Shown here: one piece after another, positions 7,267 to 29,742 of the stretch | Layout of the letters: each line of letters starts with the position of its first letter | Numbering within the stretch: the stretch's first letter is position 1 | Assembly (NCBI GenBank): GCA_903913965.1 | Contig: CAIWNB010000150.1 | Location: forward strand, 1 to 61,616 | Source of the DNA: an uncultured beta proteobacterium | GTDB taxonomy: Bacteria; Pseudomonadota; Gammaproteobacteria; Burkholderiales; SG8-41 | DNA: 61,616 bases | Direction of reading: 5' to 3' | Made by a program: the position numbers and the translations under genes | The notes under the pieces: model-generated | Told to the model about the DNA's origin: nothing | Databases searched by the model: none | The model's input: the letters and a program-made list of their open reading frames with translations, nothing else

Positions 7267-7475
7267 GGTTTTATCAACCCGCAAGTTGGCAAAAATCCAT
7301 TCTAGCAAAGCCCCGCGAACATACTGCGGTGAAATCGCTTCACAACGGAAAAACCCGCTTGAAATAGCACCCCGATCCAATCAAGTCTTCGCGACCTATG
7401 GAGTCAGGCGATTCAACACCACTGCCTGCGCTTGGGACGCTTGTGAGCCGACAGCCGCCCAAGTAGACTGCAACG

Positions 7476-10615: not shown

Positions 10616-12064
10616 TTAGAGTGAAAGTGCTACGGAATACGCACAGATCGCCATCAAGGCACCTGGGAATATGCCGAAACCGAGTACCGCCAGGCCGTTC
10701 ATGCTCAACACAATACGCATCGGAGAGTTCGATACGATAGGCGAGTTATCCTGCGGCGCGTCGAAATACATCAACTTGACAATGCGCAAATAGTAGAACG
10801 CACCGATCAACGAGAACATAACGGCGACCACAGCTAGCCACACATAGCCGGCCTCGACGACCGCCCAAAGGACTGACAATTTGGCGTAAAAGCCAACGAC
10901 TGGCGGCACCCCGGCCATGGAAAACATCAACAAAAGCATTATTGCCGCATACCAAGGACTACGCTGGTTAAGCCCTTTGTAATCGTCCAGATTTTCCGCT
11001 TCGAATCCATCACGTGACAGCAGCAGCATGACGCCGAAGGTGCCCAAAGTGGTCAAAACATAAACCACTACGTAAAACATCGATGCTGCATACCCCTCCG
11101 AAGTACCGCTCAGAATGCCGAGGAGCAGGAAGCCCATATGCGAAATTGCCGAATAGGCGAGCATGCGCTTTAAATTCGTTTGCGCAATCGCAGCGATATT
11201 ACCGATGGCCAATGACAGCACCGCCATAATAATCAGCATCCATTGCCACTGCTCAACCAGAAACGGCGCCCCCAAACCCGACACCAGCAGTCTAATCACA
11301 AAAGCGAACGCAGCAAGTTTCGGCGCAGAACCGATAAACAAGGTCACTGCAGTAGGCGCACCGTGGTACACATCGGGCACCCACATATGGAAGGGCACCG
11401 CCGAAAGCTTGAAACCCAGCCCGGCGACAACGAAAACCAGAGCAAACGCCAGTATGGTGACGTCGGCCTCCCCTGCACTGATAACGTCTGACATGACATC
11501 GATATCAAGAGTGCCGGTTGCACCATAGAGCATGGACATTCCGTAGAGCAACATGCCTGAGGCAAGAGCACCCAAAACGAAATACTTCATCGCAGCTTCT
11601 GTCGCCTGCCTGGAGTCACGTTGCAAGGCGATCATTGCGTACAACGAAAGACTCAACATTTCCAGCCCAAGATAAAGCGTTAGCAGGCTGCTACCAGAAA
11701 CCATGACCAACATGCCCAAAGTCGCAAACAGGGCCAGCACAAAAAATTCGCCGCGAAACATATCCCTCGATCGGATGTAGCTCTGCGAGTAAACAAAAAC
11801 CACGGCCACCGAAATATAAATACACAACTTAAGCACACTTGCCATCGAGTCGGTAACGAACATGTCGCTGAACGGTTCGACTTCGTTGATGGGGTCGACA
11901 AAGGCAGTAATGAAAAAACAACCCAGCAGCGTCGCCAGAGACAACAGGTAGGTCAGCCCGCGTTGCTCATCACTAAGAAAAAGGTCGATCAGCAATATCG
12001 CGCATATCATGCACAGCAGGAAGACTTCCGCATAGGCGGGCGCGAGGGAGAGGAGAAATTGCAT
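10616..12064 (-). CDS. nuoN: NADH-quinone oxidoreductase subunit N
   Basis: 482-aa polytopic antiporter-like protein in the last position of the nuo cluster. Confidence 0.9.
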
Positions 12065-12065
12065 C

Positions 12066-13556
12066 CTACAGTCCGATCAATAGTTTGCGACCAGGGGTTG
12101 CCAATCGCAGGATTTCGTTGACCGATTCGTGCAACACCGCACCGAATGGCGCCGGGTACAACCCCATTAGAAGCACGAACAGTGCGAGCACTGCGAGGAT
12201 AAAAAATTCGCGTTTCGATATGTCACTTAACTGCTCGACATGGGGGTTGGCGATCTCACCAAAGATCACGCGTTTATACATCCAGAGGGTATAAGCCGCG
12301 CCAAAAATCAATGTGCTTGCAGCAAGCGCCGCATACCAGAAATTAACTTTCATGGTTGCGAGAATCACAAGCCATTCCCCGACAAAGCCGCTGGTGCCTG
12401 GAAGGCCGGCATTCGCCATTGCGAACAACATAAACATCGCTGCAAATACCGGCATCCTGTTAACCACGCCGCCGTAATCGGCAATCATGCGTGAATGCAT
12501 ACGATCGTACAGCACTCCCACGCATAGAAACATCGCCGCAGAGATGAAGCCGTGCGAAATCATCTGCAATATCGCACCTTCCATGCCCTGCGCACTGAAA
12601 ATGAAGACACCCAGGGTTACGAAGCCCATGTGAGAAATGGACGAATAGGCAATCAGTTTCTTCATGTCGGCCTGTACCAGCGCTACCAAACCAATGTATA
12701 CAACGCCGATCAACGACAGCACGATGACGAAACCCGCCAGCTCGTGGCTCGCGTCCGGCGCAATCGGCAGTGATAGCCGCAGAAAACCGTATCCACCAAG
12801 CTTCAACATGATCGCCGCCAGCACCACCGAACCGCCGGTAGGCGCTTCGACGTGCGCGTCGGGCAACCATGTATGAACCGGCCACATTGGCACCTTGACC
12901 GCAAACGCCAGCATGAATGCAGCGAATATTGCGATCTGTGCATTCAGCGGCAGCGGCAGATCGTAAAAGTGTAGCAGCGAGAAACTACCGCCCGCGGCGT
13001 TATAGAGATAAATCAATGCGACCAGGGACAGCAATGATCCCATCAGCGTGTAGAGGAAGAATTTAACCGCTGCATAAACCCGGTTGGGGCCGCCCCAGAC
13101 GCCGATGATAATAAACATCGGTATCAGCGTGGCCTCGAAATACACATAAAACAATAAGGCATCAAGTGCGCAAAACACGCCGTTCATCAATCCGGACAGA
13201 ATCAGGAAGGACGCCATGTATTGGGAAACGCGTTCCTTGATGACTTCCCAGCCCGCGATCACCACGATGACCGTCGTCACGCAGTTCAACAGAATCAAGA
13301 GCAGCGAAATGCCGTCTATACCCAGGTGGTAATTGACATTGAATGCGGCAATCCAGGGGGCGGACTCTACAAACTGAAAGTCCGAAGTGCCAGGGTCAAA
13401 GTGAGTCCACAGTGGTAATGCAACAAGTAATCCGGCAAAAGCGCCAAGCAGAGCAAGCACTCGCGCAGCACGTTGATTGTTGTCACCAACTGCGAGTACC
13501 GCAAGGCCAGCAAAAATCGGCGTCCAAATTACCAAGCTAAGCATGGGGAGATTCAT
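12066..13556 (-). CDS. nuoM: NADH-quinone oxidoreductase subunit M
   Basis: 496 aa with motif [17 protein letters not shown]. Position is between nuoL and nuoN. Confidence 0.92.
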
Positions 13557-13574
13557 TTAGTTATGTACGCCCGC

Positions 13575-15590
13575 TTAAAACGAGCTGCCCAACAATAAGG
13601 ACAGCAACAAAAGAATGCCAATAATCATGGCGAACGCATAATGATAAATATAGCCGGACTGAAACTGGCGTATGACGGTTGAAGCCCACCCGATCACCTT
13701 TGCCGAACCATTGACAAAAAAACCGTCAATAATGGCGATGTCGCCAATTCGCCAGAGTCCGCCACCAAGGCTGCGCGCTCCGCCTGAGAAAACCCAGCTA
13801 TAGAGACGATCAAGTCCGTATTTATCATCCAGTATACGCACGATGAATCCAAATTTTTGCCGCAGCACGGCGGGTAAATCAGGCTTGACGATATAGAGGT
13901 AAAAGGCGGTCCCCGCACCGGCCAACGCCAAGGCAAAGGGCAAGGTGGTGAAACTATGAATGATCATCGGAACAACGCCATGAAATTCCTCGGCAAGTTT
14001 CGCCATGCCCCCGTGATCGCTGCCGATGAATATTGAGCTGCCAAAATACTCCCCGAAGACTACGCTACCAATCAACCAGCCGGCGCATACAGACGGGATT
14101 GCAAGCAGAATGAGCGGTATGGTGACCACCAAAGGCGATTCATGAGGTACGCCGCCGTGCCCGTGCTCATCATGTGCCTGCTCGCCATGTGCATGGCCGT
14201 GGTCAGGATGTGTCTCGAATCGTTCTTTTCCATGGAATGCGAAGAAGACCAAGCGAAACGAGTAAAAACCACCGGCAAACACAGCGCCCAGCGCAGCAAC
14301 TAATGCAAAAGAAGCGCCCGGCACACCTGCCGCTTGCGCTGCATGAACGGCCTCGATAATGGTGTCCTTCGAGAAAAATCCGGCGAATGGCGGGAGGCCC
14401 GCATTGGCCCAGGCACCGATCAGCATCGTCACATAGGTGACCGGCAGATATTTCCTCAAGCCCCCCATCTTGCGCATGTCCTGCTCATGATGCATGGCGA
14501 TAATGACCGAGCCAGCCCCCAGGAACAGCACTGCCTTGAAAAATGCGTGGGTGACAAGATGAAACATGGCGGCAGAATATGCAGAAGCGCCAAGCGCCAT
14601 GGTCATATAGCCCAGCTGCGACAGAGTCGAATAGGCGACCACGCGCTTGATGTCAAACTGAGTCATCGCAATCAGCGCCATGAAAAAAGTGGTAATGGCA
14701 CCGATAACCAGCACAAATGACAAGGCTGTCTGCGACAACTCGAACAGGGGCGACATGCGAGCCACCATGAAAATACCCGCTGTTACCATGGTTGCTGCGT
14801 GGATCAGCGCTGAAATCGGGGTCGGGCCTTCCATCGAGTCGGGCAACCAGACATGGAGTGGAAACTGTGCGCTCTTACCCATCGCTCCGATAAACAAAAG
14901 GATGCAAGTCACGGTAATCAGAGACCATGCGTGGCCAGGGATGATTTCTATCGTGTTTCCGGCCAACGTCGAGGCTTGCTCGAAAACCTTGGCGTAATCC
15001 AAAGTGCCGAAGTACATCAGCACCAAGGCGATCCCGAGAAGAAAGCCGAAGTCACCGACACGGTTTACCATGAATGCCTTGAGGTTGGCGTAAATAGCCG
15101 TCGGTCGCGTATACCAGAACCCGATCAGCAGGTAGGAGACTAATCCCACTGCTTCCCAGCCGAAAAACAACTGAAGAAAGTTATTTGACATCACCAACAT
15201 CAGCATCGAGAAAGTGAACAGGGAGATATAACTGAAGAAGCGGTTATAGCCCGGGTCACCGTGCATGTAGCCGATTGTATAAATATGCACCATTAGCGAA
15301 ACAAAAGTGACGACCAGCATCATCGTCGCCGATAGCTGATCTATCAGGAAGCCAACCTCAAAGTGGGCAGATTCGCTTTCTAGCCACGTATACAAAGCGC
15401 CGTTGAAATAGTTGCCGTCGAGCACATCGCGAAACACCGCAACGGCGCCAGCAAACGAAACGAGCATCAGCAGGATGGTCAGCGAATGGGCTACACGGTT
15501 GCTGATTTTCCTGCACAGCAGACCCGACAAGAGAGCCCCTGCAAGCGGTGCCAGGGGGACCAAAAGATAGATTTTTTGCATCGACGTCAC
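13575..15590 (-). CDS. nuoL: NADH-quinone oxidoreductase subunit L
   Basis: 671 aa with motif HVWLPDSMEGPTPISALIHAATMVTAG and a long C-terminal extension. Start is GTG at 15590 or ATG at 15581. Confidence 0.92.
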   Translation of the reverse strand: MTSMQKIYLLVPLAPLAGALLSGLLCRKISNRVAHSLTILLMLVSFAGAVAVFRDVLDGNYFNGALYTWLESESAHFEVGFLIDQLSATMMLVVTFVSLMVHIYTIGYMHGDPGYNRFFSYISLFTFSMLMLVMSNNFLQLFFGWEAVGLVSYLLIGFWYTRPTAIYANLKAFMVNRVGDFGFLLGIALVLMYFGTLDYAKVFEQASTLAGNTIEIIPGHAWSLITVTCILLFIGAMGKSAQFPLHVWLPDSMEGPTPISALIHAATMVTAGIFMVARMSPLFELSQTALSFVLVIGAITTFFMALIAMTQFDIKRVVAYSTLSQLGYMTMALGASAYSAAMFHLVTHAFFKAVLFLGAGSVIIAMHHEQDMRKMGGLRKYLPVTYVTMLIGAWANAGLPPFAGFFSKDTIIEAVHAAQAAGVPGASFALVAALGAVFAGGFYSFRLVFFAFHGKERFETHPDHGHAHGEQAHDEHGHGGVPHESPLVVTIPLILLAIPSVCAGWLIGSVVFGEYFGSSIFIGSDHGGMAKLAEEFHGVVPMIIHSFTTLPFALALAGAGTAFYLYIVKPDLPAVLRQKFGFIVRILDDKYGLDRLYSWVFSGGARSLGGGLWRIGDIAIIDGFFVNGSAKVIGWASTVIRQFQSGYIYHYAFAMIIGILLLLSLLLGSSF

Positions 15591-15594
15591 GACA

Positions 15595-15906
15595 TCAGCC
15601 TTTCAGACTGTCGAGGTCTTCGACGTCGATCGTCTGCAGATTGCGGAAAAGTACGACCAGAATCGCCAGGCCAATGGCCGATTCAGCGGCCGCGACCGTA
15701 AGAATAAAAAACACAAATATCTGCCCGGCAGGATCGCCGAGATAATGCGAAAAGGCGACAAAGTTCATGTTCACTGCAAGCAACATTAACTCGATCGCCA
15801 TCAGCAAAATGATGACGTTCCGGCGGTTCAGAAATATTCCAACCACGCTGATCGCGAAAAGGATCGCGCCCAACACCAGATAATGCTGCAATGAAACCAA
15901 TCGCAT
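15595..15906 (-). CDS. nuoK: NADH-quinone oxidoreductase subunit K
   Basis: ATG at 15906 ([17 protein letters not shown]...). Three-TM protein of ~100 aa. Confidence 0.9.
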
Positions 15907-15996
15907 CCCCTCTTCGCTCAATAACTTAAGCTAACGCGCATCGTGCAATCACGCCAAAGTTCCATAAACCGATAAATCGCCCGGAGAATCCTTGGC

Positions 15997-16599
15997 TCAA
16001 TCCTGACCAGTGTCAGCGGGCATGCTCACCATTCGTACACGATCCTCGCGTCGTACCTTGACCTGCATTGCAGGATCAACGTACTTGTTCAACTTGCGCT
16101 TACGCAGCGTTAACGCGATCGCCGCAACGATAGCCACCAACAGAATGACCGCTGCGATTTCAAATGGATACACATATTCCGTGTAGAGCAAACGCCCAAG
16201 CTCCCTCGTGTTGCTGTAATGAGCGGGTAATACCGGTGCCTCGAGCGCGTTGCGCGAATAAAATCCCCATAAAACCGCGCCCATTTCCAATGCCAAAAGT
16301 ATGCCGACGACCGCGCCCAGAGGCATATAACTCCAGAACCCTTCGCGCATTTTGGTCAGATTAATGTCAAGCATCATGACCACGAATAGGAACAAAACCA
16401 TAACAGCCCCTACGTAAACAAGCACCAGGGTAATCGCCAGAAACTCGGCCTGTAACTGTATCCACAAGCCAGCTGAGGTAAAAAATGCCAACACTAGCAG
16501 TAGTGCCGAATGTACCGGGTTACGCGAAGTGATCACGCCACATGCTGCAACAACCAGCACCAGCGAAAATGCGTAGAAGAGGAAGTCTTGAAATGTCAT
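15997..16599 (-). CDS. nuoJ: NADH-quinone oxidoreductase subunit J
   Basis: 200-aa membrane protein in the nuoJ position. Confidence 0.88.
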   Translation of the reverse strand: MTFQDFLFYAFSLVLVVAACGVITSRNPVHSALLLVLAFFTSAGLWIQLQAEFLAITLVLVYVGAVMVLFLFVVMMLDINLTKMREGFWSYMPLGAVVGILLALEMGAVLWGFYSRNALEAPVLPAHYSNTRELGRLLYTEYVYPFEIAAVILLVAIVAAIALTLRKRKLNKYVDPAMQVKVRREDRVRMVSMPADTGQD

Positions 16600-16619
16600 G
16601 GCGGTTTCAGTTCGGCCTT

Positions 16620-17111
16620 TTACCGGTACGGCGCGTCGGCAGCGCGATCTTTTGCAATCTGGTCTTCATACATATCGCCGATCGCAAGCAGCATGGGTTT
16701 GGTGTAGATCAAGTCACCGCGTTTTTCACCATGATATTCGAGCACACGGGTCTCGACTATCGAGTCTACCGGGCATGATTCTTCACAAAAACCGCAGAAG
16801 ATGCATTTGGTCAAATCGATATCGTAGCGGGTAGTACGGCGCGTACCGTCATCGCGTTGTTCGGATTCAATCGATATCGCTAGAGCCGGACAGACTGCTT
16901 CGCAAAGTTTGCATGCGATACAACGCTCTTCGCCATTCGGGTAGCGGCGCAGTGCGTGTAAGCCCCTGAACCTCGGCGACTGCGGCGTTTTCTCTTCAGG
17001 AAACTGCACGGTAATCTTGCGCCGAAACAGATGCCTGCCGGTCATCATCAGGCCCTTGACCAGTTCAAACAGAAGGAAGGTGCGAAAAAAATCGAGGATA
17101 CGGGTGATCAT
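16620..17111 (-). CDS. nuoI: NADH-quinone oxidoreductase subunit I
   Basis: ATG at 17111. Has two 4Fe-4S ferredoxin motifs, [12 protein letters not shown] and [12 protein letters not shown]. Confidence 0.92.
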
Positions 17112-17115
17112 TGTC

Positions 17116-18273
17116 TTATCTCCACCATATCCATAGCGGCGTCTGCGTCCAAATACCCACAACTATGATCCAAACAATGGTGATTGGTATAAAAACCTTC
17201 CAGCCCAAGCGCATGATCTGGTCATATCGATAGCGCGGAAATGTTGCGCGGAACCAAAGAAAGCTCGATACCACAAGGAATAGTTTTATAAACAACCAGC
17301 CAAAACAACCCGCTGCCAACCACGGCATTCCGAGCGCAGTAGCATACGCCAGGGGAATCGGTGACAACCATCCACCGAGGAACATGATGGAACACAGCGT
17401 CGACACCAGGATCATGTTCGCGTATTCCGCAAGGAAGAAGACCGCAAAAGTCATACCCGAGTATTCAACGTGGAAACCAGCGACGATTTCTGATTCACCC
17501 TCAGCGACGTCGAACGGCGCGCGGTTGGTTTCCGCGACCCCTGCGATCAGATAAACCAGAAATAGCGGAAAAAGTGGAATCAAGTACCAGTTGAAAATTC
17601 CGTAGTTACCGCTCTGCCCATTGACGATATCGACAAGGTTGAGGCTTTGCGAAGCCATTAGGACGCCGACCAACGCAAAGCCCATGGCAATTTCGTAGGA
17701 TACGATTTGAGCGGCAGAACGTAGGGCTCCGAGAAATGCATATTTGGAATTGGAGGCCCAACCGGCAATGATGATGCCGTAGACACCCATCGAAGTAATG
17801 GCCATAACATAAAGAAGCCCTGCGTCAATATTGGCAAGAACCACTTCAGGCCCAAACGGGATAACCGCCCAAGCTGCCAAGGCTGGCATCAACGCCATTA
17901 CTGGTGCAAGAACGAACAAAAATTTGTTGGCCCCCGTTGGAACAATGATTTCTTTGAGCAGCAGTTTCAGGCCGTCGGCAATGGGCTGTGCCAGTCCACC
18001 CAACCAGCTGATACCGAAGAAGGTCACCCGGTTTGGCCCGATCCGTATCTGCATCCAGCCTATCAGCTTGCGCTCCCACAACGTTAGGTAAGCAACGCTC
18101 AACAATAGGGGTACAACAATACAAACGATCAGTGCGATGGTTTTGAGTAGCAGCAAGAGGGAATCAAGTACTTGCGGCGCGGATTCCTGGCCGACAACCC
18201 ACACGACGGCAGCTGCCACAAACCCCCAGAGCCATGCGCCCAAGGAAATTACGGGTTGAAGAAGTGCGCTCAC
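17116..18273 (-). CDS. nuoH: NADH-quinone oxidoreductase subunit H
   Basis: Has motif [19 protein letters not shown]. The GTG start overlaps the nuoG stop (GTGA). Confidence 0.92.
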
Positions 18274-20621
18274 ACCGCCACCTTTTGTTCAGTCACCACA
18301 GGCTCCAGACTCACGCTGCCAAATAGTCCGCCAAGTACAGCAGTTGCCTCATGCCCACCGGGGATCCGGATACAGTGCGCCGGCAACTTGTCGTCTTTCT
18401 TCACGCTCACAACAACCACACCGGAACCCTGTGAAATTTTGAGGCTGTCGCCATCATTTATTCCAAGGCGCGTGAGATCCATGCCGTTCATGGTTGCGAG
18501 CGGTGGTGCACCGACCGCCGATTTTTGTAACGCAGCGGCACGGCGCACGATGGCGTCCGCCTGATAAGGGGCGACTTCGCCGATGCGTTCCATCACGATC
18601 GTGTCACCCCCAATATGTGCCACCGGGGCAGCGCGAAGGCTATTATCCAGACGGCTGAGCACATTACCGTCACCGATGGCGTCGCGACGGACCGCTTCGC
18701 TGCTGTCATAATCAAATCCCGGCAGACCCGCGAGGTTCCCAAGGACACGAAGCACTTTCCACGCAGGCCTGGTCTCTGCGAGCGGCAGCACAATTCCATT
18801 AAAGCTTTGCACACGCCCTTCAGTGCTAATAAATGTTCCAGAGGTCTCGGAAAAAGGCGCGATCGGCAATAACGCGTTCGCATATTCCAAAGCCTGGTGC
18901 TGGTATGGGGATAAGGCCACTACGAATTCGGCCTCTTTCATCGCCGCTAAGGCCTGTGCAGCATCATACGAGTCGCACTCAGGCTCGACTCCCAGCAATA
19001 AATAGGCTTTGAGCGTTTTTTCCAGCATCTGCCGCGCGTTTAGGCCTGACCGAGGCGTAGCTTCAGCAAGGTAACCACCGACACTGTTTGCAGCCTCCCC
19101 GAGGAAGCCAAATTTAGCGCCGAGTAACCCTGCCAGTTGTTCTGCCAGCCAGTGCAAGCGCCCCGCTGAAGGGTGATGCTGCGCCAGGTTCCCCAGCCAG
19201 ACCACCGAGTTGCCAGCAACTGCCATACTGCTCGCGATGGCAAGAGCCGCCGCATCGACTGCCACCACCGGAACATCTGCCGGCAACGGGGCGCCCTTAA
19301 TCTGGGCTACAGCGTTGATCACCGCTGCGAGTGCGCCGGCCATTCCTGACGGCGCGACGATCGATTTCGCAGCGACCCGCATCAACAAATCGTCATCAAC
19401 CGGATTGATCAGGTTGAGTTCCAGTTTTTTCTTTGCAGCCTGTCGCAGACGCAGAGCCAGCAACGGGTGATCGTTACGCAATGAGCTGCCAATCACCAAG
19501 ACACGATCAAGCGAGGCGATTTCAGCGACCGGCATGCCCAGCCAGGGGGCGCCCGAGGCAACTGCATCAGCTGAAAAATCTGATTGGCGAGTACGGAAAT
19601 CTATATTCTCTGAACCAAGGCCGCGCACCAGTTTTTGCAGCAAGTAGAGCTCTTCGACCGTCTGATGCGCACTGCCAAGGGCGCCAATTTGGTTGGCACC
19701 ATGCCGTTCACGCACTGCGAGCAATCCTTTGGCGACGAAATCGAGCGCGACCTGCCAATCGACTTCTTCCCACTTGCCGTCCTGCTTGATCATTGGCTTG
19801 ACCAGACGGCTGGAGGCGTTCAATCCTTCGTAGGCGAAGCGGTCCTTGTCAGACAGCCAGCATTCGTTGATATCGTCATTCTCACGTGGCAACACCCGCA
19901 TGACGCGGTTTTGCTTGATCTGAACCGTCGTATTTGCGCCAAGACCGCAATGCGGGCTGATCGATGGACGACGGTTCAATTCCCAAGTGCGCGCACTGTA
20001 GCGGAATGGCTTAGACGTCAATGCACCTACCGGGCAAAGATCGATCACGTTACCGGACAGTTCCGAGTCAACCGTCTTGCCAACGAACGCGATAATTTCG
20101 GAATGTTCTCCGCGGCCGATCATGCCAAGCTCCATCACACCCGCTATTTCCTGGCCAAACCGAACACAACGCGTGCAATGAATACAGCGCGTCATATCAG
20201 TCGAAATCAGCGGGCCAAGGTCCTTGTTACCGACGATGCGTTTGGGTTCGTCGTATCGCGACGCACTGCCGCCATACCCGACTGCCAGGTCCTGCAATCT
20301 GCATTCCCCCCCCTGGTCACAGATCGGACAGTCGAGGGGATGATTGACCAGCAGAAACTCCATCACGCCCTTTTGAGCGTTGATGGCCTGCTCGGAATGG
20401 GTTTGCACCTTCATGCCGTTGGTCACCGGCGTCGCACAAGCGGGCAGCGGTTTGGGTGCCTTCTCGACCTGGACAAGACACATTCGACAGTTCGCGGCAA
20501 TCGACAGTTTTTCGTGATAGCAGAAATGAGGCACATAAATGCCCGCCTGCTGGGCTGCATCCATTACGGTGCTGCCGTCAGCAACTTCCAGTTTGTGGCC
20601 GTCTATTTCGATTTCGAGCAT
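18270..20621 (-). CDS. nuoG: NADH-quinone oxidoreductase subunit G
   Basis: ATG at 20621 ([13 protein letters not shown]). Has an N-terminal 2Fe-2S region ([17 protein letters not shown]), the 4Fe-4S motif [10 protein letters not shown] and a molybdopterin-like domain. Confidence 0.92.
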
Positions 20622-20632
20622 GGCGTTCCGCG

Positions 20633-21946
20633 TCAGATATATTCCGGCACCAGGCACTTCTTGTGCTCGATGTGGTACATGAATTCATCGCGATAATGTT
20701 TCAGGAATGCACGCACCGGCATCGCAGCGGCATCGCCAAGAGCGCAAATGGTCCTGCCCTGAATGTTTTCAGCGACCTGATTAAGCTTGTCTAGATCCTC
20801 GGGCTTACCTTTACCGTGTTCAATGCGATCAACCATGCGGTAAAGCCAGCCAGTACCTTCACGACAGGGCGTGCACTGGCCACAAGATTCTTCGTAGTAA
20901 AAATAGGATAGCCTCAATAGGCTCTTTACCATACAACGGGTTTCGTTCATCACAATCACCGCACCGGAGCCCAGCATCGAGCCTGCTTTGGCAATCGAGT
21001 CATAGTCCATATCTGTTGCCATCATGATATCCGCTGGCAAAACGGGCATCGACGAACCACCTGGAATAACCGCTTTTAGTTTGATGCCTTCGCGCATGCC
21101 GCCGGCCATCTCCAGCAGCTTTGGAAAAGGGGTGCCCAATTGAATCTCATAATTTCCTGGGCGCGCCACATCACCTGACACCGAAAAAATCTTTGTGCCG
21201 CCGTTATTCGGCTTGCCGAGCGCGAGAAATGCATCTGCACCGTTTCTGATAATCCACGGTACCGCAGCAAACGTTTCGGTATTGTTAATCGTGGTTGGCT
21301 TGCCATAAAGGCCAAAGCTTGCCGGGAAAGGCGGCTTAAAGCGTGGCTGCCCCTTTTTACCCTCAAGAGATTCCAGCAGTGCCGTTTCTTCTCCGCAAAT
21401 ATACGCGCCCCAACCGTGGTGGTTATAGAGCTGAAAATTGAAACCGCTGCCGATAATGTTGTCACCGAGGAGACCTGCCGCGCGCGCCTCGTCTACCGCA
21501 GCCTCGATACGTTCGAAAGCGGCCCAGATTTCTCCATGCACGTAGTTGTACCCTACAGCGGTGCCAGTGGCGTAACCAGCAATCGCCATCCCTTCGATCA
21601 AGGCATGCGGGTTGTAGCGAAGAATATCGCGGTCTTTGAACGTACCAGGCTCACCCTCATCCGAATTACAGACCAGGTATTTTGCACCGGCGAACTGACG
21701 CGGCATGAAACTCCACTTCAATCCGGTTGGGAAACCCGCGCCACCGCGACCACGCAAAGCCGACTTTTTGACATCGGCGATTACCTGCTCAGGTGGGGTT
21801 TTTTCCGCCAGTATCTTTCTCAGCGCTGCATAACCGCCACGCGCCTCGTAATCCTTGAGACTCCAGTTCTCCCCATTGATGCCTTTCATAATCACGGCAT
21901 CGGGTCCAAACTGATCAACAGCAAATGGTGGAACGGGCAAACCCAT
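20633..21946 (-). CDS. nuoF: NADH-quinone oxidoreductase subunit F
   Basis: ATG at 21946 overlaps the nuoE stop by 1 nt. Has FMN/NADH motifs [13 protein letters not shown] and the 4Fe-4S motif [12 protein letters not shown]. Confidence 0.92.
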
Positions 21947-22434
21947 TACTTGAGCTCCTCGATCAGCTTGTCGAGTTTGTCCGCGGTCATCGCGCACAAC
22001 ATATGTTTGTTATTCCGAATCAACACGGGTGCATCACCACAAGCCCCCATGCATTCAGATTCTTTAAGCGTAAACGCACCGTCAGCGGTCGTCTCACCGA
22101 ATCCGATGCCGAGCTTGGACTTCAGGTGCTGTGCAGCCACATTGGCTCCCAGCAATGCGCATGGCAAATTCGTGCATATGGACAGTTTGCAACGCCCAAC
22201 CGGCTTGAGGTCGTACATCGTATAAAAACTCGCCACCTCGTAGACGGCGATCGGCGGCATGCCAAGGTAGGAAGCAACGCAGTCCATCGTCTCATGCGAC
22301 AGCCAGCCCTTCTCATCCTGCGCGATAGTTAATGCAGCCATCACCGCCGATTGTTTTTGATCAGCTGGATACTTGGCAATCGCCTTGTCAATTTTAATCA
22401 ACGATTCGGGGCTGAGAAGCATCGGCGCACTCAT
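21946..22434 (-). CDS. nuoE: NADH-quinone oxidoreductase subunit E
   Basis: 162 aa with thioredoxin-like 2Fe-2S motifs (ICTNLPC...[10 protein letters not shown]). Confidence 0.92.
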
Positions 22435-23684
22435 CTATCAATTTCTCCGAACACAATCTCAATGGTTCCTATGATGGCAACAACGTCTGCAATCATATGC
22501 CCGCGCGACAACTCATCAATGGCCGAAAGATGGGTAAAGCTTGGCGACCGTATCTTCATACGGTAAGGTTTATTTGCACCGTCGGACATCATATAAATTC
22601 CGAATTCGCCCTTAGGGTGCTCGATGCCTGCATAAGCCTCCCCCTCGGGCACATGCATCCCCTCGGTGAAAAGCTTGAAGTGGTGGATCAGCTCTTCCAT
22701 ATTCGATTTCATCGCCAAGCGCGAGGGCGGCCCGACCTTGTGGTCGTCGGTCATCACCGGCCCCGGATTCTTGCGCAGCCATTCAACACACTGCTTCACA
22801 ATCCGGTTCGCCTGCCGCATTTCTTCAATACGCACGAGATAACGGTCATAGCAGTCGCCATTAACCCCGACCGGAATATCAAAATCCATCCGGTCATACA
22901 CCTCGTAGGGCTGGTTCTTGCGCAAATCCCAGGCGATCCCCGAGCCGCGCAACATCGGGCCTGTGAAGCCCATCGCGTACGCTCTTTCCGGAGAAACCAC
23001 ACCAATGCCTACTGTGCGCTGCTTCCAAATGCGGTTATCTGTCAACAAAGTTTCATATTCGTCGACACACTTCGGAAACCGGTCAACAAAATCCTCGATA
23101 AAATCGAGCACCGAACCCTGCCGGTTAGCATTTAGGTCGCGCGTTGCGCGCTCATTATGTATCCTCGTCGCGGTGTATTGCGGCATGGTATCGGGCAAAT
23201 CGCGATAAACGCCGCCCGGCCGGTAGTACGCCGCGTGCATCCGGGCTCCAGAAACCGCCTCATAGACATCAAACAGGTCTTCGCGCTCGCGGAAGCAATA
23301 CAAAAACATCGTCATGGCGCCCAGATCCAGACCATGACACCCCAGACCCAGCAGGTGCGCAAGAATACGGGTGATCTCATCAAACATCACGCGGATATAT
23401 TGAGCGCGCAGAGGCACCTGTATGCCCAGAAGTTTTTCAATCGCCAGCACGTAGGCATGCTCATTGCACATCATGGTGCAATAATCCAGACGGTCCATAT
23501 ATGGCACCGACTGCAGGAAGGTCCGATGCTCGGCCAGCTTTTCCGTCGCGCGATGCAGCAACCCGATATGCGGGTCGGCACGCACAATCGTTTCCCCGTC
23601 CAACTCCAGCACCAGACGCAAAACGCCGTGAGCAGCAGGATGTTGCGGCCCAAAATTCATTGTGTAATTGCGGATATCAGCCAT
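22431..23684 (-). CDS. nuoD: NADH-quinone oxidoreductase subunit D
   Basis: 417 aa. N-terminal [19 protein letters not shown] overlap with nuoE. Confidence 0.93.
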
Positions 23685-23686
23685 GC

Positions 23687-24301
23687 TTAACCCTTGCGGA
23701 ACCCTGCGCCACCGGCGTAGTTCTCTTCGCGAACGATACGCGGCGTGATCTCTCTGGGATCGATAGTGACCGGCTGGTATATGACACGGCGCTGATCTGG
23801 GTCGTAGCGCATTTCGACATGCCCCGATATCGGAAAATCCTTGCGAAACGGATGCCCGATGAAGCCGTAGTCGGTCAAGATTCGTCGTAGATCTGGGTGA
23901 CCGTTAAAGAGGATGCCAAAGAGATCGAATGCTTCTCGCTCAAACCAGTTCGCAGCAGACCACACCCCCACCACCGTGTCCACCATTGGCATATCATCGT
24001 CTGGCGCAAAAACCCGGACACGCAACCTGCGGTTCTTGCTGACGCTTAGCAAATGGTAAACTACCGCATAGCGGGCACCATCCCACCTGCCATCACCATA
24101 GGTCTTGTAATCAAGACCACAAACATCGATGACCTGCTCGAACATCAAGTCTGGCGCATCGCGCAACACTAACATCGATTCGACCAACCCCTCAGCCTTG
24201 AGGGTTACGGTGACCTCTCCGAGAGCATCAACCACGCCGACAACACGCTCACCAAGAAGGTCATTGACGCGGGCAGCGAGAATTTCGGTACGGGCTGTCA
24301 T
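23687..24301 (-). CDS. nuoC: NADH-quinone oxidoreductase subunit C
   Basis: 204-aa 30-kDa subunit pattern ([23 protein letters not shown]), between nuoB and nuoD. Confidence 0.9.
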
Positions 24302-24784
24302 TTATCGCGCAATCGTATTGGTACGTTTGATTTTGTTTTGCAACTGGATAATCCCGTAGAGCAGCGCCTCGGCCGTCGGCGGACATCCCGGTACGTATAT
24401 ATCTACCGGAACGATGCGATCACAGCCGCGGACAACGGAATAGGAATAATGGTAATAACCACCGCCGTTAGCGCAGGAACCCATGGAGATCACCCAGCGC
24501 GGCTCAGCCATTTGGTCGTAAACCTTGCGCAGGGCTGGCGCCATCTTGTTGCAAAGAGTGCCGGCAACAATCATTACGTCGGATTGGCGTGGACTGGGGC
24601 GGAACACGATACCAAAACGGTCCAGATCGTAGCGCGAAGCGCCTGCGTGCATCATTTCAATCGCGCAACAGGCAAGGCCGAAGGTTACCGGCCACATTGA
24701 ACCTGTGCGAGTCCAGTTGATGAGCGTATCAACTGTTGTAGTCAGGTAACCCTGCTCCATTAACGCCGCGTCATTCGCGCCCAT
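24302..24784 (-). CDS. nuoB: NADH-quinone oxidoreductase subunit B
   Basis: ATG at 24784 (TTG at 24787 is possible). Has N2-cluster motifs [20 protein letters not shown] and VPGCPP. Confidence 0.92.
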
Positions 24785-24797
24785 CAAAACCCCGTCT

Positions 24798-24838
24798 CAA
24801 CGTGCAGCATCCTGTTTAACTTAGCTGCAATGTGCAGC
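24798..24838. repeat. direct repeat CAA[C/T]GTGCAGC x2, 30 bp apart; second copy inside palindrome GCTGCAATGTGCAGC
   Basis: Copies are at 24798-24808 and 24828-24838. The 6-bp inverted repeat GCTGCA/TGCAGC is at 24824-24838. A looser third copy CAAAGTGCAGG is at 24986-24996. Confidence 0.4.
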
Positions 24839-24902
24839 CTACTTCCGCCCGTAAGCTTTATCACCAGATTACACCCGTAAACGGGCCATAAAACAGCCTG
24901 CG

Positions 24903-24932
24903 ATTTTACCCTCGCTCAGCGTCCAGGGTCAA
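24903..24932 (-). promoter_or_regulatory. candidate sigma70 promoter for nuoB-N (TTGACC-N18-TAAAAT)
   Basis: The minus strand has TTGACC (24932..24927), an 18-nt spacer, and TAAAAT (24908..24903). It lies inside the 239-bp gap between the UbiE-like gene and nuoB. Confidence 0.35.
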
Positions 24933-25023
24933 CGCAGAACATTGCGCTGTATCAAATGCTTGGACATCCAGGGCATTGCAACACCCAAAGTGCAGGCGCC
25001 ACCGATTTTCCTGCATCTCTCAG

Positions 25024-25776
25024 CTACTTCTTTGCGGCGCGATGGCAGCCTATCATGCCGGCAAAAACCGACTTCGCTGAAACATCACAAAAACCCAAGT
25101 CTCTCAACAGCTCGGCCAATTCGTCGGCCGAATAGAACATCTCAAGTGCATTTATGAAATACTTTTTGCAATTGAGCGCCGACTCATCACTGCGAAAAAG
25201 AAAGCCGGTAAATGCCAAGCACATCCGCAGGTAAGCGTAATAGAGCTTTTCAACCACCGGATTGGCCGGCCGCAGCATGTCACAATGGTAAAAATGCCCT
25301 CCCGGCTTTAGCACTCTGAGTATCTCGCTGAAGACGGTACGCACACGCAAATGACGCGAGGCAAACTGCAGCGTAACAACATCAAAGTGATTGTCAGGAA
25401 AAGGCAGTTTATGCACGTCACCGATAACGCTATGAATATGGAAGCCTCGGTCAACCGCGCGCTGCCTGCCAACCGCCTGCATCTCCGCGCTGCGGTCAAT
25501 GGCATGCACCTCAAGCGTGGGCTCGCGGCGCAACAAGGCGATCCCGATCGCGTTAGTCCCGGCGCAAACATCGAGGGTCCTTTGTCCGGGGCGAAGCTCG
25601 ATCACCGACATGAAGGCCTGAAGAAAACGATTCCACAATCCCAGGCTGGCGACATAATTCGCCCTGTCATAATAAGGCGCAACGTCAGCAAATACCCTAT
25701 TTAACTCCTTGGTCCAAACGACATTGAAACGTTCTTCACGCAGTTGTTCACGAACGGCGACTGGTGGGGGGCTCAT
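25024..25776 (-). CDS. UbiE/MenG-family methyltransferase-fold protein with degenerate SAM motif I; candidate rhodoquinone biosynthesis protein (RquA-like)
   Basis: 250 aa. It is collinear by eye with E. coli UbiE (YDRANYVASLGLW.., LPFPDNHFDVVTLQFASRHL, VLKPGGHFY). Motif I reads LDVCAGTNAIG where UbiE has LDLAGGTGDL. It lies immediately downstream of frdABCD. The CDS and family call are high confidence. The RquA assignment is an inference (about 0.5). Confidence 0.85.
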   Translation of the reverse strand: MSPPPVAVREQLREERFNVVWTKELNRVFADVAPYYDRANYVASLGLWNRFLQAFMSVIELRPGQRTLDVCAGTNAIGIALLRREPTLEVHAIDRSAEMQAVGRQRAVDRGFHIHSVIGDVHKLPFPDNHFDVVTLQFASRHLRVRTVFSEILRVLKPGGHFYHCDMLRPANPVVEKLYYAYLRMCLAFTGFLFRSDESALNCKKYFINALEMFYSADELAELLRDLGFCDVSAKSVFAGMIGCHRAAKK

Positions 25777-25866
25777 GACTGAAGTGATCTCCTCAAAGTT
25801 GAATCAAACCGCAAATTACCTATATTTTTTCTGCTTACATAAAAACAGTGCCTGGAACACACCTTC

Positions 25867-26208
25867 CTAGAAAGACCAAAGACTCGCCGCCGCCCACAGA
25901 CTCGCCAGAATCGCCACGCCATAAACAACCGTAGCAACTGCCGAGTCCGCACGCACACCAAAATCATAAAAAGTAATACGCAAACGATGCGCCGCACTCC
26001 AAAGCACTAGGAAAATCACAACCGTAAAAGCTGCCTTGTAGACGCTATGGGACAAAAACATGCGCAAACGGTCGTATGCCAGAATGTCCGGCAGATGCCC
26101 TGTCGCGGCAAGCAGGGTCATGACTATCATGACGGGAATTAAAAACGCACTGACGGTTCCGCCTGCAGCGAATGGCCCCCAAACCAGCGGTTTGTTCGAT
26201 ATCGCCAT
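25867..26208 (-). CDS. frdD: fumarate reductase membrane anchor subunit D
   Basis: ATG at 26208, 2 nt after the frdC stop. PLVWGPFAAGGTVSAFLIPVMIV aligns with E. coli FrdD [24 protein letters not shown]. Three TM segments. Confidence 0.85.
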   Translation of the reverse strand: MAISNKPLVWGPFAAGGTVSAFLIPVMIVMTLLAATGHLPDILAYDRLRMFLSHSVYKAAFTVVIFLVLWSAAHRLRITFYDFGVRADSAVATVVYGVAILASLWAAASLWSF

Positions 26209-26210
26209 GA

Positions 26211-26603
26211 TCAATGCACCCCTGCAAAAACCAGAATGGCCACAGACAGCACAAACCACACCCCGTAATGCAAACCCGCCACAAACCAGCCAGGCATAAA
26301 ACTCTCCCCCACCTGCAACGGCAGCGCCTTAGGCGTGAGGTTGAACCAGGTAACACTGTGATAAACCGAGAACACCAAAGCCAGCATTTGAAAAACGATC
26401 ATGGACGGACTCTTGAGGGAGTCAAGAAACAGCTGGTATCCCGCCTCGCTCTCTGCGAGACGCGCCAGCCCGACCACCACCAACAAGGCGTACGCCCCAA
26501 CAAACAAACAGGTCAATTCCCGCACCATATAGCGCAAATAACGCGGATGATCGAAAAACCAACTGACTTTTGGCACTTCGCGGACAAACGGATTACGGCT
26601 CAT
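26211..26603 (-). CDS. frdC: fumarate reductase membrane anchor subunit C
   Basis: ATG at 26603 forms an ATGA overlap with the frdB stop. The N-terminus MSRNPFVREVPKVSWFFDHPRYLRYMVRE parallels E. coli FrdC [27 protein letters not shown]. Confidence 0.85.
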   Translation of the reverse strand: MSRNPFVREVPKVSWFFDHPRYLRYMVRELTCLFVGAYALLVVVGLARLAESEAGYQLFLDSLKSPSMIVFQMLALVFSVYHSVTWFNLTPKALPLQVGESFMPGWFVAGLHYGVWFVLSVAILVFAGVH

Positions 26604-27343
26604 TTTTTCACCCACGGCATCAGATGTTCCGTATACCAATCAACCGTACTGGCAATCTTCACCTGCTGCAGCGCGCTGGCCGGATCAACGTGCTCAGGAC
26701 AGACCTCCGAACAGGCGCCGGCAAAAGAGCACTCCCACACACCTTCGCCAGAGGCTATTTCCTGCTGACGCTCTTTGCGCCCGCCGTCCCTTGAATCAAG
26801 GTTGTAGCGATGGGCCATCGAAATCGCCGCGGGGCCTATGAATTTTGGCGTCAAACCATACTCCGGACACGCCGCGTAACAGAGCATGCAGTTTATGCAA
26901 AGCGTGTATTGCTTGAATTTCTTGAGTTCAGCTGGTGTTTGCCTGTATTCCCCCTCGCCGACCGGCTTTTCGTCCTTGGGAATCAGGTAAGGCTTGACGC
27001 GCTTGAATTTCGTCATGAAATCATCGATCACCGTGACGAGATCCCGCTCAATCGGGAAGTGCGCCAGGGGTTCGACGCGGATCACTCCCTGGTAGTTACG
27101 CAGAAATGATTTGCAGGCGAGTTTCGGCTCGCCATTGATCATCATTCCACAACTACCGCACACCGCCATGTGACAGGACCAGCGATAGTTCAACGTCGGG
27201 TCGATGGTTTCCTTGACATGGTTCAGCGCGTCGAGAACTACCCACTCCTCCTCGCACGTCACCAAGTAGCGCTGAAAATGCGGCTCCGTTTCCGTCTCCG
27301 GGTTATAGCGCAGGACTTCCAGCTCAATCACGCGCTCGCTCAT
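26600..27343 (-). CDS. frdB: fumarate reductase iron-sulfur subunit
   Basis: 247 aa with three cluster motifs: CHMAVCGSCGMMING, CINCMLCYAACP and CSFAGACSEVCP. ATGA overlap with frdA. Confidence 0.92.
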   Translation of the reverse strand: MSERVIELEVLRYNPETETEPHFQRYLVTCEEEWVVLDALNHVKETIDPTLNYRWSCHMAVCGSCGMMINGEPKLACKSFLRNYQGVIRVEPLAHFPIERDLVTVIDDFMTKFKRVKPYLIPKDEKPVGEGEYRQTPAELKKFKQYTLCINCMLCYAACPEYGLTPKFIGPAAISMAHRYNLDSRDGGRKERQQEIASGEGVWECSFAGACSEVCPEHVDPASALQQVKIASTVDWYTEHLMPWVKK

Positions 27344-29103
27344 TTGTGATCTCCCGAATAATCACGCACACCGGGCTGTGATTTGGTAATCACCACATCA
27401 CGATAATCAACGCGCGGAGGTTCATGCGAACGGAAGTAAGCCAGCGAATGCCGCAGGAATTTGCCGTCGTCACGCTCGACAAAATCCAGACGCTGGTGAG
27501 CACCACGGGATTCAGTTCGCGCCAACGCGCTCACGGTCACCGCCTCCGCACAATCCAGCATCGAACCGAGCTCGAGCGCCTGCAGGAGGTCAGTGTTGTA
27601 GACGTTAGTGCGGTCGGTCAACCCCACATCGAGATAGCGCCGCCGCAACTGGGATAATATGGCACAGGCAGCTTTGAGGCCCTCTTCCTCCCTATAGATG
27701 CCCGCATTTTCTTCCATTGTGCGCATCATCTCGCGACGCAAACCAGCAAGCGACTCACCACCGTCCGCCTTCTCAAACAAACCGCGTATGCGCCCCTGCG
27801 CAGCCGCGGCCTGAGCAGACAGCGCAACTTCGTTTACCGATGGTTTTCCGGAATTGATAAATTCAATTGCACTCAATGCGGCACGCCTGCCGAACACAAG
27901 CAGCTCAGTCAACGAATTCGAGCCGAGCCGGTTGGCTCCGTTGATACTCACACAAGCACACTCGCCCGCCGCATACAGGCCGGGAAGACTGGTCGCCGCG
28001 TCGATATCCGTATCAATGCCGCCCATCATGTAATGCACGACGGGTCGTACCGGTACCGGATCCTTGACCGGATCCACTCCGAGGTAACTAATCGACATGT
28101 CGCGCACTAAAGGCAAACGTTCGTCGATCTTTTTCTCACCAAGATGGCGCAGGTCAAGCAACATGCAATCACCATATTTGGTCGGCAACATGTTGCCTTT
28201 TTTCTGCTCATGCCAGAACGCCTGGCTGACGCGGTCACGCGGCCCCAATTCCATCGTCTTTAACTGCGGTTTGCCAACCGGCGTTTCAGGCCCCATACCG
28301 TAATCCTGCAAAAACCGGCGCGAATTCCGGTTCAGCAAAATCCCGCCCTCACCCCGGCACGCCTCGGTCAGCAAGGTGCCGGTGTTTGGCAATCCCGTCG
28401 GGTGATATTGGACAAACTCCATATCCTTCAGCGCAACGCCAGCGCGGTAGGCGAGGGCCATGCCGTCACCGGTCTTAATCGCCCCATTGGTAGTAAACGG
28501 AAACATACGCCCTGCACCGCCACCCGCAATGATGACGGCACGCGCCTCGAATCGGCGCATTTGTCCGCTACGCATTTCAATCGCCGTAAAGCCCTGGCAG
28601 CGACCGTCATCAACGATAAGATCCGTTGCATAGTATTCGTCGTAACGCTCAATCGACGGAAATTTAAGCGAGGTTTGAAACAGCGTATGCAATATGTGAA
28701 AGCCGGACTTGTCCGCGGCAAACCAGGTACGTTGCTTTTGCATTCCGCCAAACGGCCGCACCGCTACTGAGCCATCCGGCTCTCGGCTCCAGGGGCAGCC
28801 CCAATGTTCAAGCTGTAACAGCTCTTTGGGTGCCTCTCTTACGAGATAATCGACCGCATCCTGGTCGCACAGCCAGTCACCGCCACCGACCGTATCGTTA
28901 AAGTGGTGCTCCAGACTGTCATCAGGTTTGATCACCCCAGCCGCCCCGCCCTCGGCCGCACAGGTGTGACTGCGCATTGGATAAACCTTGGAGATCAGGC
29001 TGATCTTAAGCAGTGGGTCCGTTTCCGCCAGTGCTATGGCTGCGCGCAAACCAGCGCCGCCCGCGCCTATGATAGCCACGTCGCTACGGATGATTTCCAT
29101 CAT
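27340..29103 (-). CDS. frdA: fumarate reductase flavoprotein subunit
   Basis: ATG at 29103/29100 preceded by GGAGG. Has VAIIGAGGAGLRAA, HPTGLPNTGTLLTEACRGEGGILLN and LQDYGMGPETP...MELGPRD. Close collinearity with E. coli FrdA rather than SdhA. Confidence 0.92.
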   Translation of the reverse strand: MMEIIRSDVAIIGAGGAGLRAAIALAETDPLLKISLISKVYPMRSHTCAAEGGAAGVIKPDDSLEHHFNDTVGGGDWLCDQDAVDYLVREAPKELLQLEHWGCPWSREPDGSVAVRPFGGMQKQRTWFAADKSGFHILHTLFQTSLKFPSIERYDEYYATDLIVDDGRCQGFTAIEMRSGQMRRFEARAVIIAGGGAGRMFPFTTNGAIKTGDGMALAYRAGVALKDMEFVQYHPTGLPNTGTLLTEACRGEGGILLNRNSRRFLQDYGMGPETPVGKPQLKTMELGPRDRVSQAFWHEQKKGNMLPTKYGDCMLLDLRHLGEKKIDERLPLVRDMSISYLGVDPVKDPVPVRPVVHYMMGGIDTDIDAATSLPGLYAAGECACVSINGANRLGSNSLTELLVFGRRAALSAIEFINSGKPSVNEVALSAQAAAAQGRIRGLFEKADGGESLAGLRREMMRTMEENAGIYREEEGLKAACAILSQLRRRYLDVGLTDRTNVYNTDLLQALELGSMLDCAEAVTVSALARTESRGAHQRLDFVERDDGKFLRHSLAYFRSHEPPRVDYRDVVITKSQPGVRDYSGDHK

Positions 29104-29188
29104 GCACCTCCAGCGGCGCACGACAAGCGCGGCCACATGAATCGGGCAAAGAAAAATAACCGGGAAAGAACAACCAGAAAACCAACCA

Positions 29189-29209
29189 CGCCGGGCATTG
29201 CACCCGGCG
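29189..29209 (-). terminator. GC-rich hairpin with T-rich tail 21 nt after nuoA stop (terminator/attenuator-like)
   Basis: The minus strand reads CGCCGGG-TGCAATG-CCCGGCG (7-bp stem, 7-nt loop). It is followed by TGGTTGGTTTTCTGGTTGTTCTTT...TTATTTTTCTTT. Confidence 0.4.
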
Positions 29210-29229
29210 CCAGACAACGGCCTAGACCG

Positions 29230-29598
29230 TCACTCCCACTCGAGAGCGCCTTTTTTCCACTCGTAGGCGAAGCCGACGACCAGAATACCCAAGAACACAA
29301 CCATGGCCCAGAAGCCGAATGCACCGATCTCCCGCAATACAATCGCCCACGGAAAGAGGAAGGCGATTTCAAGATCAAACAGTATGAAAAGAATAGCGAC
29401 AAGATAGTAACGCACGTCGAACCTCATACGTGCGTCTTCGAAAGCCTCGAACCCACATTCGTAGGGCGATAACTTTTCGCTGTTCGGTCGGTGTACGCCG
29501 AGCAACCTGCCCACCGCACCACCAAGGATAATCGGCGCCAACCCCACCACGGCACCGACCAGGATAAACAGGAGAATCGGAAAATAATTGGCTAGCAT
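29230..29598 (-). CDS. nuoA: NADH-quinone oxidoreductase subunit A
   Basis: ATG at 29598 (TTG at 29604 is possible). Three TM segments, with [35 protein letters not shown]. Confidence 0.92.
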
Positions 29599-29728: not shown

Positions 29729-29742
29729 TTGATCTTGATCAA
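29729..29742. promoter_or_regulatory. perfect FNR/CRP-family box TTGAT-N4-ATCAA upstream of nuoA
   Basis: The sequence TTGATCTTGATCAA is a palindromic consensus. On the minus strand a CAGAAT hexamer (29706..29701) lies 22 nt downstream of the box. Assuming transcription starts 7 nt downstream of that hexamer (about 29694), the box centre falls at -41.5. Confidence 0.6.

Follow-up and report, generated by a model that had tools for sequence, protein, structure and literature searches.

An unnamed UbiE/MenG-family clade, distinct from RquA, adjoins fumarate reductase and other quinone-linked respiratory genes in Beta- and Gammaproteobacteria

The 61,616-nt stretch at positions 1–61,616 of contig CAIWNB010000150.1 (GenBank assembly GCA_903913965.1), from an uncultured beta proteobacterium and analysed here over its whole length as the window, carries a gene, called X below, between the fumarate reductase genes frdABCD and the complex I gene nuoB. 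An original prediction, made from the DNA letters alone, had proposed that X is RquA, the enzyme that forms rhodoquinone. Judged from its sequence, X is a member of a distinct, unnamed clade in the UbiE/MenG/Coq5 family, and it is not RquA. We rate the chances as about even that X is an S-adenosylmethionine (SAM)-dependent quinone-tailoring enzyme for anaerobic electron transport. The gene and its start signal are as follows.

25024–25776, minus strand: gene X (UbiE/MenG/Coq5 family, 250 aa), identified by its open reading frame (ORF) and translation, a PF01209 match, clade monophyly and hhalign
25789–25794, minus strand: GAGGAG Shine-Dalgarno sequence of X, 12 nt 5' of its ATG, read from the sequence

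X belongs to a separate clade of the UbiE/MenG family

The Pfam profile PF01209 (Ubie_methyltran, ubiE/COQ5) matches X residues 23–249 at profile positions 7–233 of 233, with 127 bits against a gathering threshold of 20.1, which bears out the original description of a 250-aa protein collinear with UbiE. The Shine-Dalgarno sequence and the 90-nt gap between the frdD stop (25867) and the X ATG (25776) were also found as described, with the gene on the minus strand. X has the same fold as UbiE, MenG and Coq5 and is collinear with them over its full length, Coq5 (PDB 4OBW) aligning over X residues 24–247. It nevertheless falls below every NCBIfam cut-off for UbiE/MenG, scoring 143 bits against 158.35 for TIGR01934, 130.8 against 216 for NF001244, and 111–114 against 327–420 for the MenG equivalog models; with BioC-type and generic methyltransferase models its scores are much lower. 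The methyl-plastoquinone methyltransferase MpqE of Nitrospirota (NF052510) offers a parallel, as a UbiE-derived paralogue for a benzoquinone other than ubiquinone. X matches the MpqE model over its full length but with 118.6 bits against a cut-off of 335, the taxa and gene context of MpqE are unlike those of X, and no other mpq-type genes were seen near X.

In a neighbour-joining tree of 22 family members, 47 UbiE-like sequences and four RquA proteins, calculated with capped distances (saturated RquA pairs), the X family was monophyletic in 100 of 100 bootstraps. Of the UbiE-like sequences, 45 were sampled representatives and the other two were the UbiE proteins of E. coli and Pseudomonas mendocina. 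An exhaustive HMMER search revealed a gap in bit score, with full-length family representatives at 195–329 bits and generic UbiE/MenG proteins at 127 or less. The clade comprises at least 121 distinct genes in species-representative genomes, and all counts over 121 genes or loci given below are among the matches listed; at 90% identity, 2,355 clusters match a gammaproteobacterial member at E ≤ 1e-40. The carriers are almost all metagenome-assembled genomes (MAGs) of Beta- and Gammaproteobacteria. They include many Burkholderiales and Rhodocyclales MAGs, Sulfuritalea, Georgfuchsia, Sterolibacterium and Methyloversatilis, together with Crenothrix, Methylococcaceae, Ca. Thiodiazotropha, Sedimenticola, Muproteobacteria and Acidiferrobacterales. 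Family members are annotated at source only as 'class I SAM-dependent methyltransferase' or under a generic UbiE/MenG name, and a literature search found no paper describing the clade.

The canonical ubiE of Beta- and Gammaproteobacteria lies in a conserved ubiE-ubiJ-ubiB locus (PMC11707229). X differs from it in lying in respiratory operons, and neighbour analyses and Pfam scans of 71 first-scan loci turned up no ubiJ or ubiB neighbours. The earlier view of X as a paralogue rather than the housekeeping ubiE is thus upheld by its own clade, its scores below the UbiE/MenG cut-offs and its position outside this locus.

Two observations concern individual carriers. Sulfuritalea sp. bin 197 has two X copies on separate contigs (L025, L027), one after frdABCD with the partner gene Y described below, the other after an MFS transporter. 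Four contigs of betaproteobacterial type with the order tpiA-frd-X-nuo (L005, L020, L047, L048) are filed as Sphingomonadaceae, Spirochaetota or Enterobacteriaceae MAGs, labels that are probably binning or labelling errors.

The clade retains SAM-contacting acidic residues and has near-invariant residues of its own

Conservation in the X clade was compared with that in 82 UbiE-like representatives, a residue being called clade-specific when present in at least 90% of the clade and rare or absent in the UbiE-like set. Shared with UbiE/MenG are the Tyr36-Asp37-x-x-Asn40 (YDxxN) segment, Asp69, Gly73 and Thr74 of motif I (Asp-x-x-x-Gly-Thr), the post-I Asp94, Arg141 after the FDxVT strand and the PGG...acidic...Pro segment; the clade also keeps Asp120 and Asp166. 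Clade-specific are Asn75 (Gly in UbiE), Arg95, Gln100, His122, Gln137, His142, His164, Met167-Leu168 (Phe-Ser in UbiE), Ser196, Phe207 and Ala210, and an N-terminal extension with the pattern Glu10..Arg13...Phe17...Trp21. They are concentrated in the loop of motif I and shortly after the stretches aligned to UbiE motif II and the LEFS strand. In place of the canonical G-T-G-D and of the Arg-Asn pair after the FDxVT strand, X has G-T-N-A and Arg-His, and LEFS is replaced by H-C-D-M-L. Position 142 is His in 100% of the clade and in 5% of the UbiE-like proteins, whereas 91% of UbiE/MenG have Asn there.

Motif I had been called degenerate in the original prediction. The string LDVCAGTNAIG is indeed present (residues 68–78) and the change of Gly9 to Asn is unusual, occurring in 98% of the clade and 0% of the 82 UbiE-like representatives. 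The Cys at position 5, however, is usual for enzymes of the MenG type; a MenG-like gene of Chloroflexia, placed directly downstream of menA in locus L072, has LDMCCGTGD at this site. The only unusual motif I changes in X are therefore Gly9 to Asn and the next Asp to Ala, and Asp69, Asp94 and Asp120 are retained. The yeast Coq5 equivalents of Arg141 and of Tyr36 in YDxxN have been proposed to be catalytic in that enzyme. Overall, X looks like an active SAM enzyme with a remodelled pocket for a quinol-like substrate.

X is not RquA

RquA converts ubiquinone to rhodoquinone using SAM as the amino donor and Mn2+ as cofactor (PMC9814641). In the account given in PMC7813818, which draws on Lonjers 2012 and Stairs 2018, it is diagnosed by motif I, where Gln replaces Asp/Glu at position 3 and Val replaces Gly at position 7. 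Comparison sequences were obtained through the published TaqMan oligonucleotides for Rhodospirillum rubrum rquA (PMC6529003), which translate to FEPGQE, LQPA and VYGPFS. An exact search of genome contigs with the forward primer gave chance matches only, and a degenerate DNA pattern for LQPAxVYGPF retrieved four rquA genes, from Pararhodospirillum oryzae, two Rhodospirillum sp. and Rhodospirillaceae Z3-40. The four proteins share 59–84% mutual identity and all contain VLQPA(C/A)VYGPFS. The set is of the R. rubrum type, without Stairs' Group B, and the signature is reported for all RquA.

X was set apart from these proteins in the following comparisons. The RquA motif I, LQPA(C/A)VYG, has Gln3 and Val7 and keeps Gly9, whereas X keeps Asp3 and Gly7 and has Gly9 changed. 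BLASTP of X against the four RquA gave a best score of 21 bits (E = 0.085, non-significant), against 122 bits (E = 3e-37, 34% identity over 238 aa) for Pseudomonas mendocina UbiE. tblastn of the four RquA against about 180 X-family loci gave no match at E ≤ 1e-3, while the Pseudomonas UbiE was found at about 1e-7. By hhalign, the X family aligned to RquA with a probability of 1.4% and to the UbiE/MenG-like representatives with a probability of 100% (E = 4.8e-63, 232 columns). The N-terminal YDxxN...SxG segment of UbiE is kept in X and missing from RquA in the joint alignment. None of the 150 nearest 50%-identity representatives from the exhaustive HMMER search has the Q..V motif I, and when all fetched loci were searched for rquA by regular expression and tblastn, none was found adjoining X.

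What speaks for RquA is the methyltransferase fold, class I in both proteins, a non-canonical motif I in both, and the position of X beside frdABCD; true rquA genes, too, are frequently located close to complex I and II genes (PMC5953543), and Betaproteobacteria hold most known bacterial rquA genes (PMC11707229). The SAM ribose and adenine contacts D118 and D143 of R. rubrum RquA (Rru_A3227), which are needed in vivo (PMC9814641), align to Asp94 and Asp120 of X, a likeness generic to class I methyltransferases and therefore non-discriminating. The UbiE Arg-Asn site, His-Glu in RquA and Arg-His in X, is a weak parallel only. With X far closer to ordinary UbiE/MenG, the sequence comparisons, made with RquA of the R. 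rubrum type, refute membership of the RquA family, and we give practically no credence to X being a ubiquinone-to-rhodoquinone enzyme of the RquA kind. Of the accompanying idea, that X might provide the fumarate reductase with a quinone it can use, only an analogy is left.

X lies with fumarate reductase inside an apparent complex I operon

On the minus strand of the window the gene order is tpiA, secG, tRNA-Leu(GAG), nuoA, frdABCD, X, nuoB, nuoC ... nuoN. Since the order is nuoA-frdABCD-X-nuoB, frdABCD and X form an insertion inside the complex I operon. The features of the locus, all on the minus strand except where a position is given instead, are listed below.

25867–26259 (bounds of the ORF, with a true start that probably lies further downstream), minus strand: frdD, NF003977 67.2 bits against a cut-off of 60, and PF02313
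26211–26639, minus strand: frdC, PF02300 118 bits; NF003445 81 bits, under its cut-off
26600–27343, minus strand: frdB, iron-sulfur subunit, NF009051 361 bits against a cut-off of 333
27340–29103, minus strand: frdA, flavoprotein subunit, NF006686 934 bits (cut-off 854), the alignment beginning at ORF residue 40
29230–29598, minus strand: nuoA, PF00507 139 bits, split from nuoB by frdABCD-X
10616–24787, minus strand: remaining complex I genes, nuoB to nuoN, of the operon downstream of X; assigned by NCBIfam (NuoB, NuoC) and Pfam (NuoD, E, F, G, H, L and N)
29188–29210, minus strand: strong terminator-like hairpin, rich in G+C (10 pairs, 7 of them G-C) and followed by a T-rich tract, in the nuoA-frdA interval; consensus match only
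24903–24932, minus strand: sigma-70-like promoter match at 10 of 12 positions, in the 236-nt X-nuoB spacer; consensus match only
29729–29742, in the interval from tRNA-Leu to nuoA, with the nuoA ATG about 135 nt downstream: perfect FNR/ANR-type box TTGATCTTGATCAA, the sole zero-mismatch match in the 61.6-kb window

The likely start of frdA is the ATG at 29103, which follows GGAGGT; the mechanical ORF begins at 29217. The hairpin may be a terminator, an attenuator or the seam of the frdABCD insertion. GC content gave no foreign signature for frdABCD-X and does not mark the insertion as recent. The FNR-type box suggests that the complex I operon, with frdABCD and X in it, is under anaerobic control.

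The X family recurs beside quinone-linked respiratory modules

Genes within 6 kb of X were counted for the 121 distinct X genes listed, as follows.

frdABCD: 40 of 121
nuo genes: 32 of 121
MtrA/MtrB-type decahaem and porin genes: 12 of 121
NrfC/NrfD-type module: 10 of 121
Y, a 220-aa orphan: 52 of 121 (43%)

The tie between X and frdABCD noted originally, with frdA, B, C and D as neighbours of X in the window, is therefore found beyond the window too. A recurrent operon has the order nuoA-frdABCD-X-Y-nuoB, and frdABCD-X also lies between nuoA and nuoB in locus L109; many Betaproteobacteria have nuoA-X-Y-nuoB, without frd. In Crenothrix and Methylococcaceae MAGs, X ends a cluster of genes for a cytochrome c, an MtrA-like decahaem protein, an MtrB/PioB porin and a 241-aa protein (L018:3308–8756; L015; L028; L050; L010), which is a module of the extracellular-electron-transfer type in methanotrophs. 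In Ca. Thiodiazotropha and related Gammaproteobacteria, X comes after genes for an FeS protein (NrfC-like), a membrane protein (NrfD-like) and a multihaem cytochrome and ahead of one for a cytochrome c (L068:4727–9123; L069; L061). Three Methylococcaceae loci (L017:8840–9292; L050; L019) have, just downstream of X, the gene of a lipid-binding protein of the Coq10/START quinone-binding type (PF03364), and further direct neighbours are NapH-like Fer4_5 proteins, a di-haem peroxidase and CtaA. What these neighbours have in common is that they are membrane enzymes exchanging electrons with the quinone pool at low oxygen. Methylene-ubiquinone is general in aerobic type I methanotrophs, and a role of X in forming it was considered for these carriers; it was set aside, as the modification in that quinone is one of the side chain, whereas X goes with redox modules.

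Five loci beyond the window have perfect FNR boxes upstream of their X operons; in L061 a perfect box is 127 nt upstream of the first gene. Counting boxes with at most one mismatch, eight were found upstream of X operons against 1.9 expected, an enrichment of about four-fold (P about 8e-4, with crude operon calls).

The frequent partner Y is an orphan gene for a protein of about 210–230 aa, 25–70 nt downstream of X on the same strand (e.g. L109:10803–11492; L036:8787–9446). Its 454 homologues are all annotated 'hypothetical', and Y had no match among Pfam, NCBIfam or PDB sequences. AlphaFold2 models it confidently, with a pLDDT of 88, as seven helices, and this model had no significant match among PDB folds.

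A role in quinone tailoring, and its alternatives

A quinone with a potential below that of ubiquinone is required by fumarate reductase and several further anaerobic modules, and FrdABCD and CymA/Mtr classically use a low-potential quinol, menaquinol. To our knowledge, Pseudomonadota have two sources of such a quinone, the Men pathway and the action of RquA on ubiquinone. As a quinone-tailoring enzyme, X would most likely act on the head group of a prenylated quinol, and would make or adjust the quinone used by low-potential, quinol-dependent modules. In the window these would be complex I, passing NADH electrons on to the quinone, and FrdABCD, passing them from the quinol to fumarate, both behind the FNR-type box. 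C-methylation would be the most economical chemistry, and the changed residues Asn75, His142 and His164 would leave room for another substrate or reaction. We infer a quinone substrate, anaerobic expression and a bearing of the product on fumarate reduction.

Several findings weigh against this role. None of the family members has a gene for a prenyltransferase or another quinone-biosynthesis enzyme within 8 kb, and UbiA and MenA queries run against all loci and the window matched solely the Chloroflexia outgroup L072. Among the listed X genes, 42 of 121 have none of the four modules nor Y within 6 kb, some of them on short contigs. Y is missing from the window, where the X-nuoB spacer spans 24788–25023; the window has either lost Y or never had it. 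The FNR box and the promoter are consensus matches only. The closest relative at the DNA level, locus L146, with 93% identity to the window from nuoB onward, is without about 490 bp inside X (its positions 1–200 against window positions 25009–25497); its X is either a remnant or a collapsed assembly, and a deletion there would mean that the gene can be lost. L146 is from a lake MAG labelled Bordetella, a label that looks wrong. Finally, the AlphaFold2 model of X is too poor for a look at active-site geometry (pLDDT 55, from a shallow alignment of 74–94% identity), so the residue arguments are made from sequence conservation.

Within quinone tailoring there are two conservative sub-readings, a MenG role through menaquinone or salvage of 1,4-dihydroxy-2-naphthoate (DHNA), and an anaerobic UbiE isozyme. 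In the former, X would be a MenG-type demethylmenaquinone methyltransferase, finishing menaquinone from a full pathway, or from salvaged DHNA by way of a MenA encoded elsewhere, for the FrdABCD, Mtr-type and NrfD-type modules. The enzymes adjoining X classically use menaquinol, X keeps its SAM ligands and the Arg and Tyr proposed as catalytic in Coq5, and the NCBIfam MenG models score it about as well as the UbiE models do. Yet all MenG equivalog scores are far under their cut-offs, and X has in no locus a menA or other men gene within 8 kb, in contrast to the menA-menG pair of the Chloroflexia locus. The Asn beside the catalytic Arg is His throughout the clade, and proteobacterial UbiE, as in E. 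coli, already methylates demethylmenaquinone. We hold this role to be unlikely, though less so than the isozyme. One lead, conditional on the strain carrying X, is Sulfuritalea hydrogenivorans, scored with one MenA, three UbiE and no RquA in Table S1 of PMC11707229; this row was the only one found when the tables of PMC11707229 and PMC13386864 were checked for carrier taxa or assemblies.

As an isozyme, X would be a redundant, anaerobically expressed UbiE that performs the usual C-methylation in ubiquinone synthesis, in parallel with the O2-independent UbiT/U/V pathway. Its collinearity with UbiE over the full length and the FNR-type boxes upstream of X operons fit this, and the O2-independent ubiquinone pathway is also FNR-linked (PMC11707229). 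X is, however, not linked to ubiT/U/V or other ubi genes. Because the clade carries near-invariant changes of its own at active-site-proximal positions (Asn75, Gln137, His142, His164 and Met167-Leu168 for Phe-Ser), a changed specificity is indicated rather than a mere isozyme. E. coli, moreover, needs no second UbiE, and we regard a redundant isozyme as improbable. More improbable still is a role with Y as a maturation or assembly factor that would modify a protein subunit of complex I or of another respiratory complex, by analogy with NDUFAF5 and NDUFAF7, which are methyltransferase-fold factors of mitochondrial complex I. In many Betaproteobacteria X-Y does lie exactly between nuoA and nuoB, even without frd, and Y is an orphan helical protein for which no fold relative was found. 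X also occurs without nuo, however, adjoining genes of the Mtr type, of NrfCD and of cytochromes; the N-terminal YDxxN segment specific to UbiE and the C-terminal region are retained across the whole Pfam model, and BioC-type and generic methyltransferase models fit it far less well. A maturation-factor role is less likely because X keeps this whole UbiE-specific architecture and occurs without nuo.

A bolder form of the quinone-tailoring reading, somewhat less unlikely in our judgement than the MenG role but still doubtful, is that the clade constitutes a third route, independent of RquA and Men, to a low-potential quinone in ubiquinone-based Pseudomonadota. The product would be rhodoquinone made by other chemistry, or an undescribed benzoquinone, and complex I, FrdABCD and the Mtr-type and NrfCD-type modules would run on it anaerobically. 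The clade-specific His, Asn and Gln residues near the SAM and substrate site would then mark the new chemistry, with Y as a partner.

The interest of the clade lies in being widespread, unnamed, derived from UbiE and wired into modules that need a low-potential quinone, in carriers that range from groundwater and lake Betaproteobacteria through Crenothrix/Methylococcaceae methanotrophs to the lucinid symbiont Ca. Thiodiazotropha. Genome surveys presumably count X-type genes as extra 'UbiE' copies, and quinone-based predictions of anaerobic metabolism could therefore be wrong in carrier lineages. In the nuoA-frdABCD-X-nuoB arrangement, a chain from NADH to fumarate and a putative quinone-tailoring enzyme are combined in one apparent operon.

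Other genes of the window

Elsewhere the window encodes the large and small subunits of a Mo enzyme of the xanthine dehydrogenase family, DsbB, a 303-aa protein with a cytochrome c domain and a 668-aa MFS/spermidine-synthase-like fusion protein, for which the regions 3574–6299, 6739–7380, 8507–9418 and 276–2282 are given jointly.

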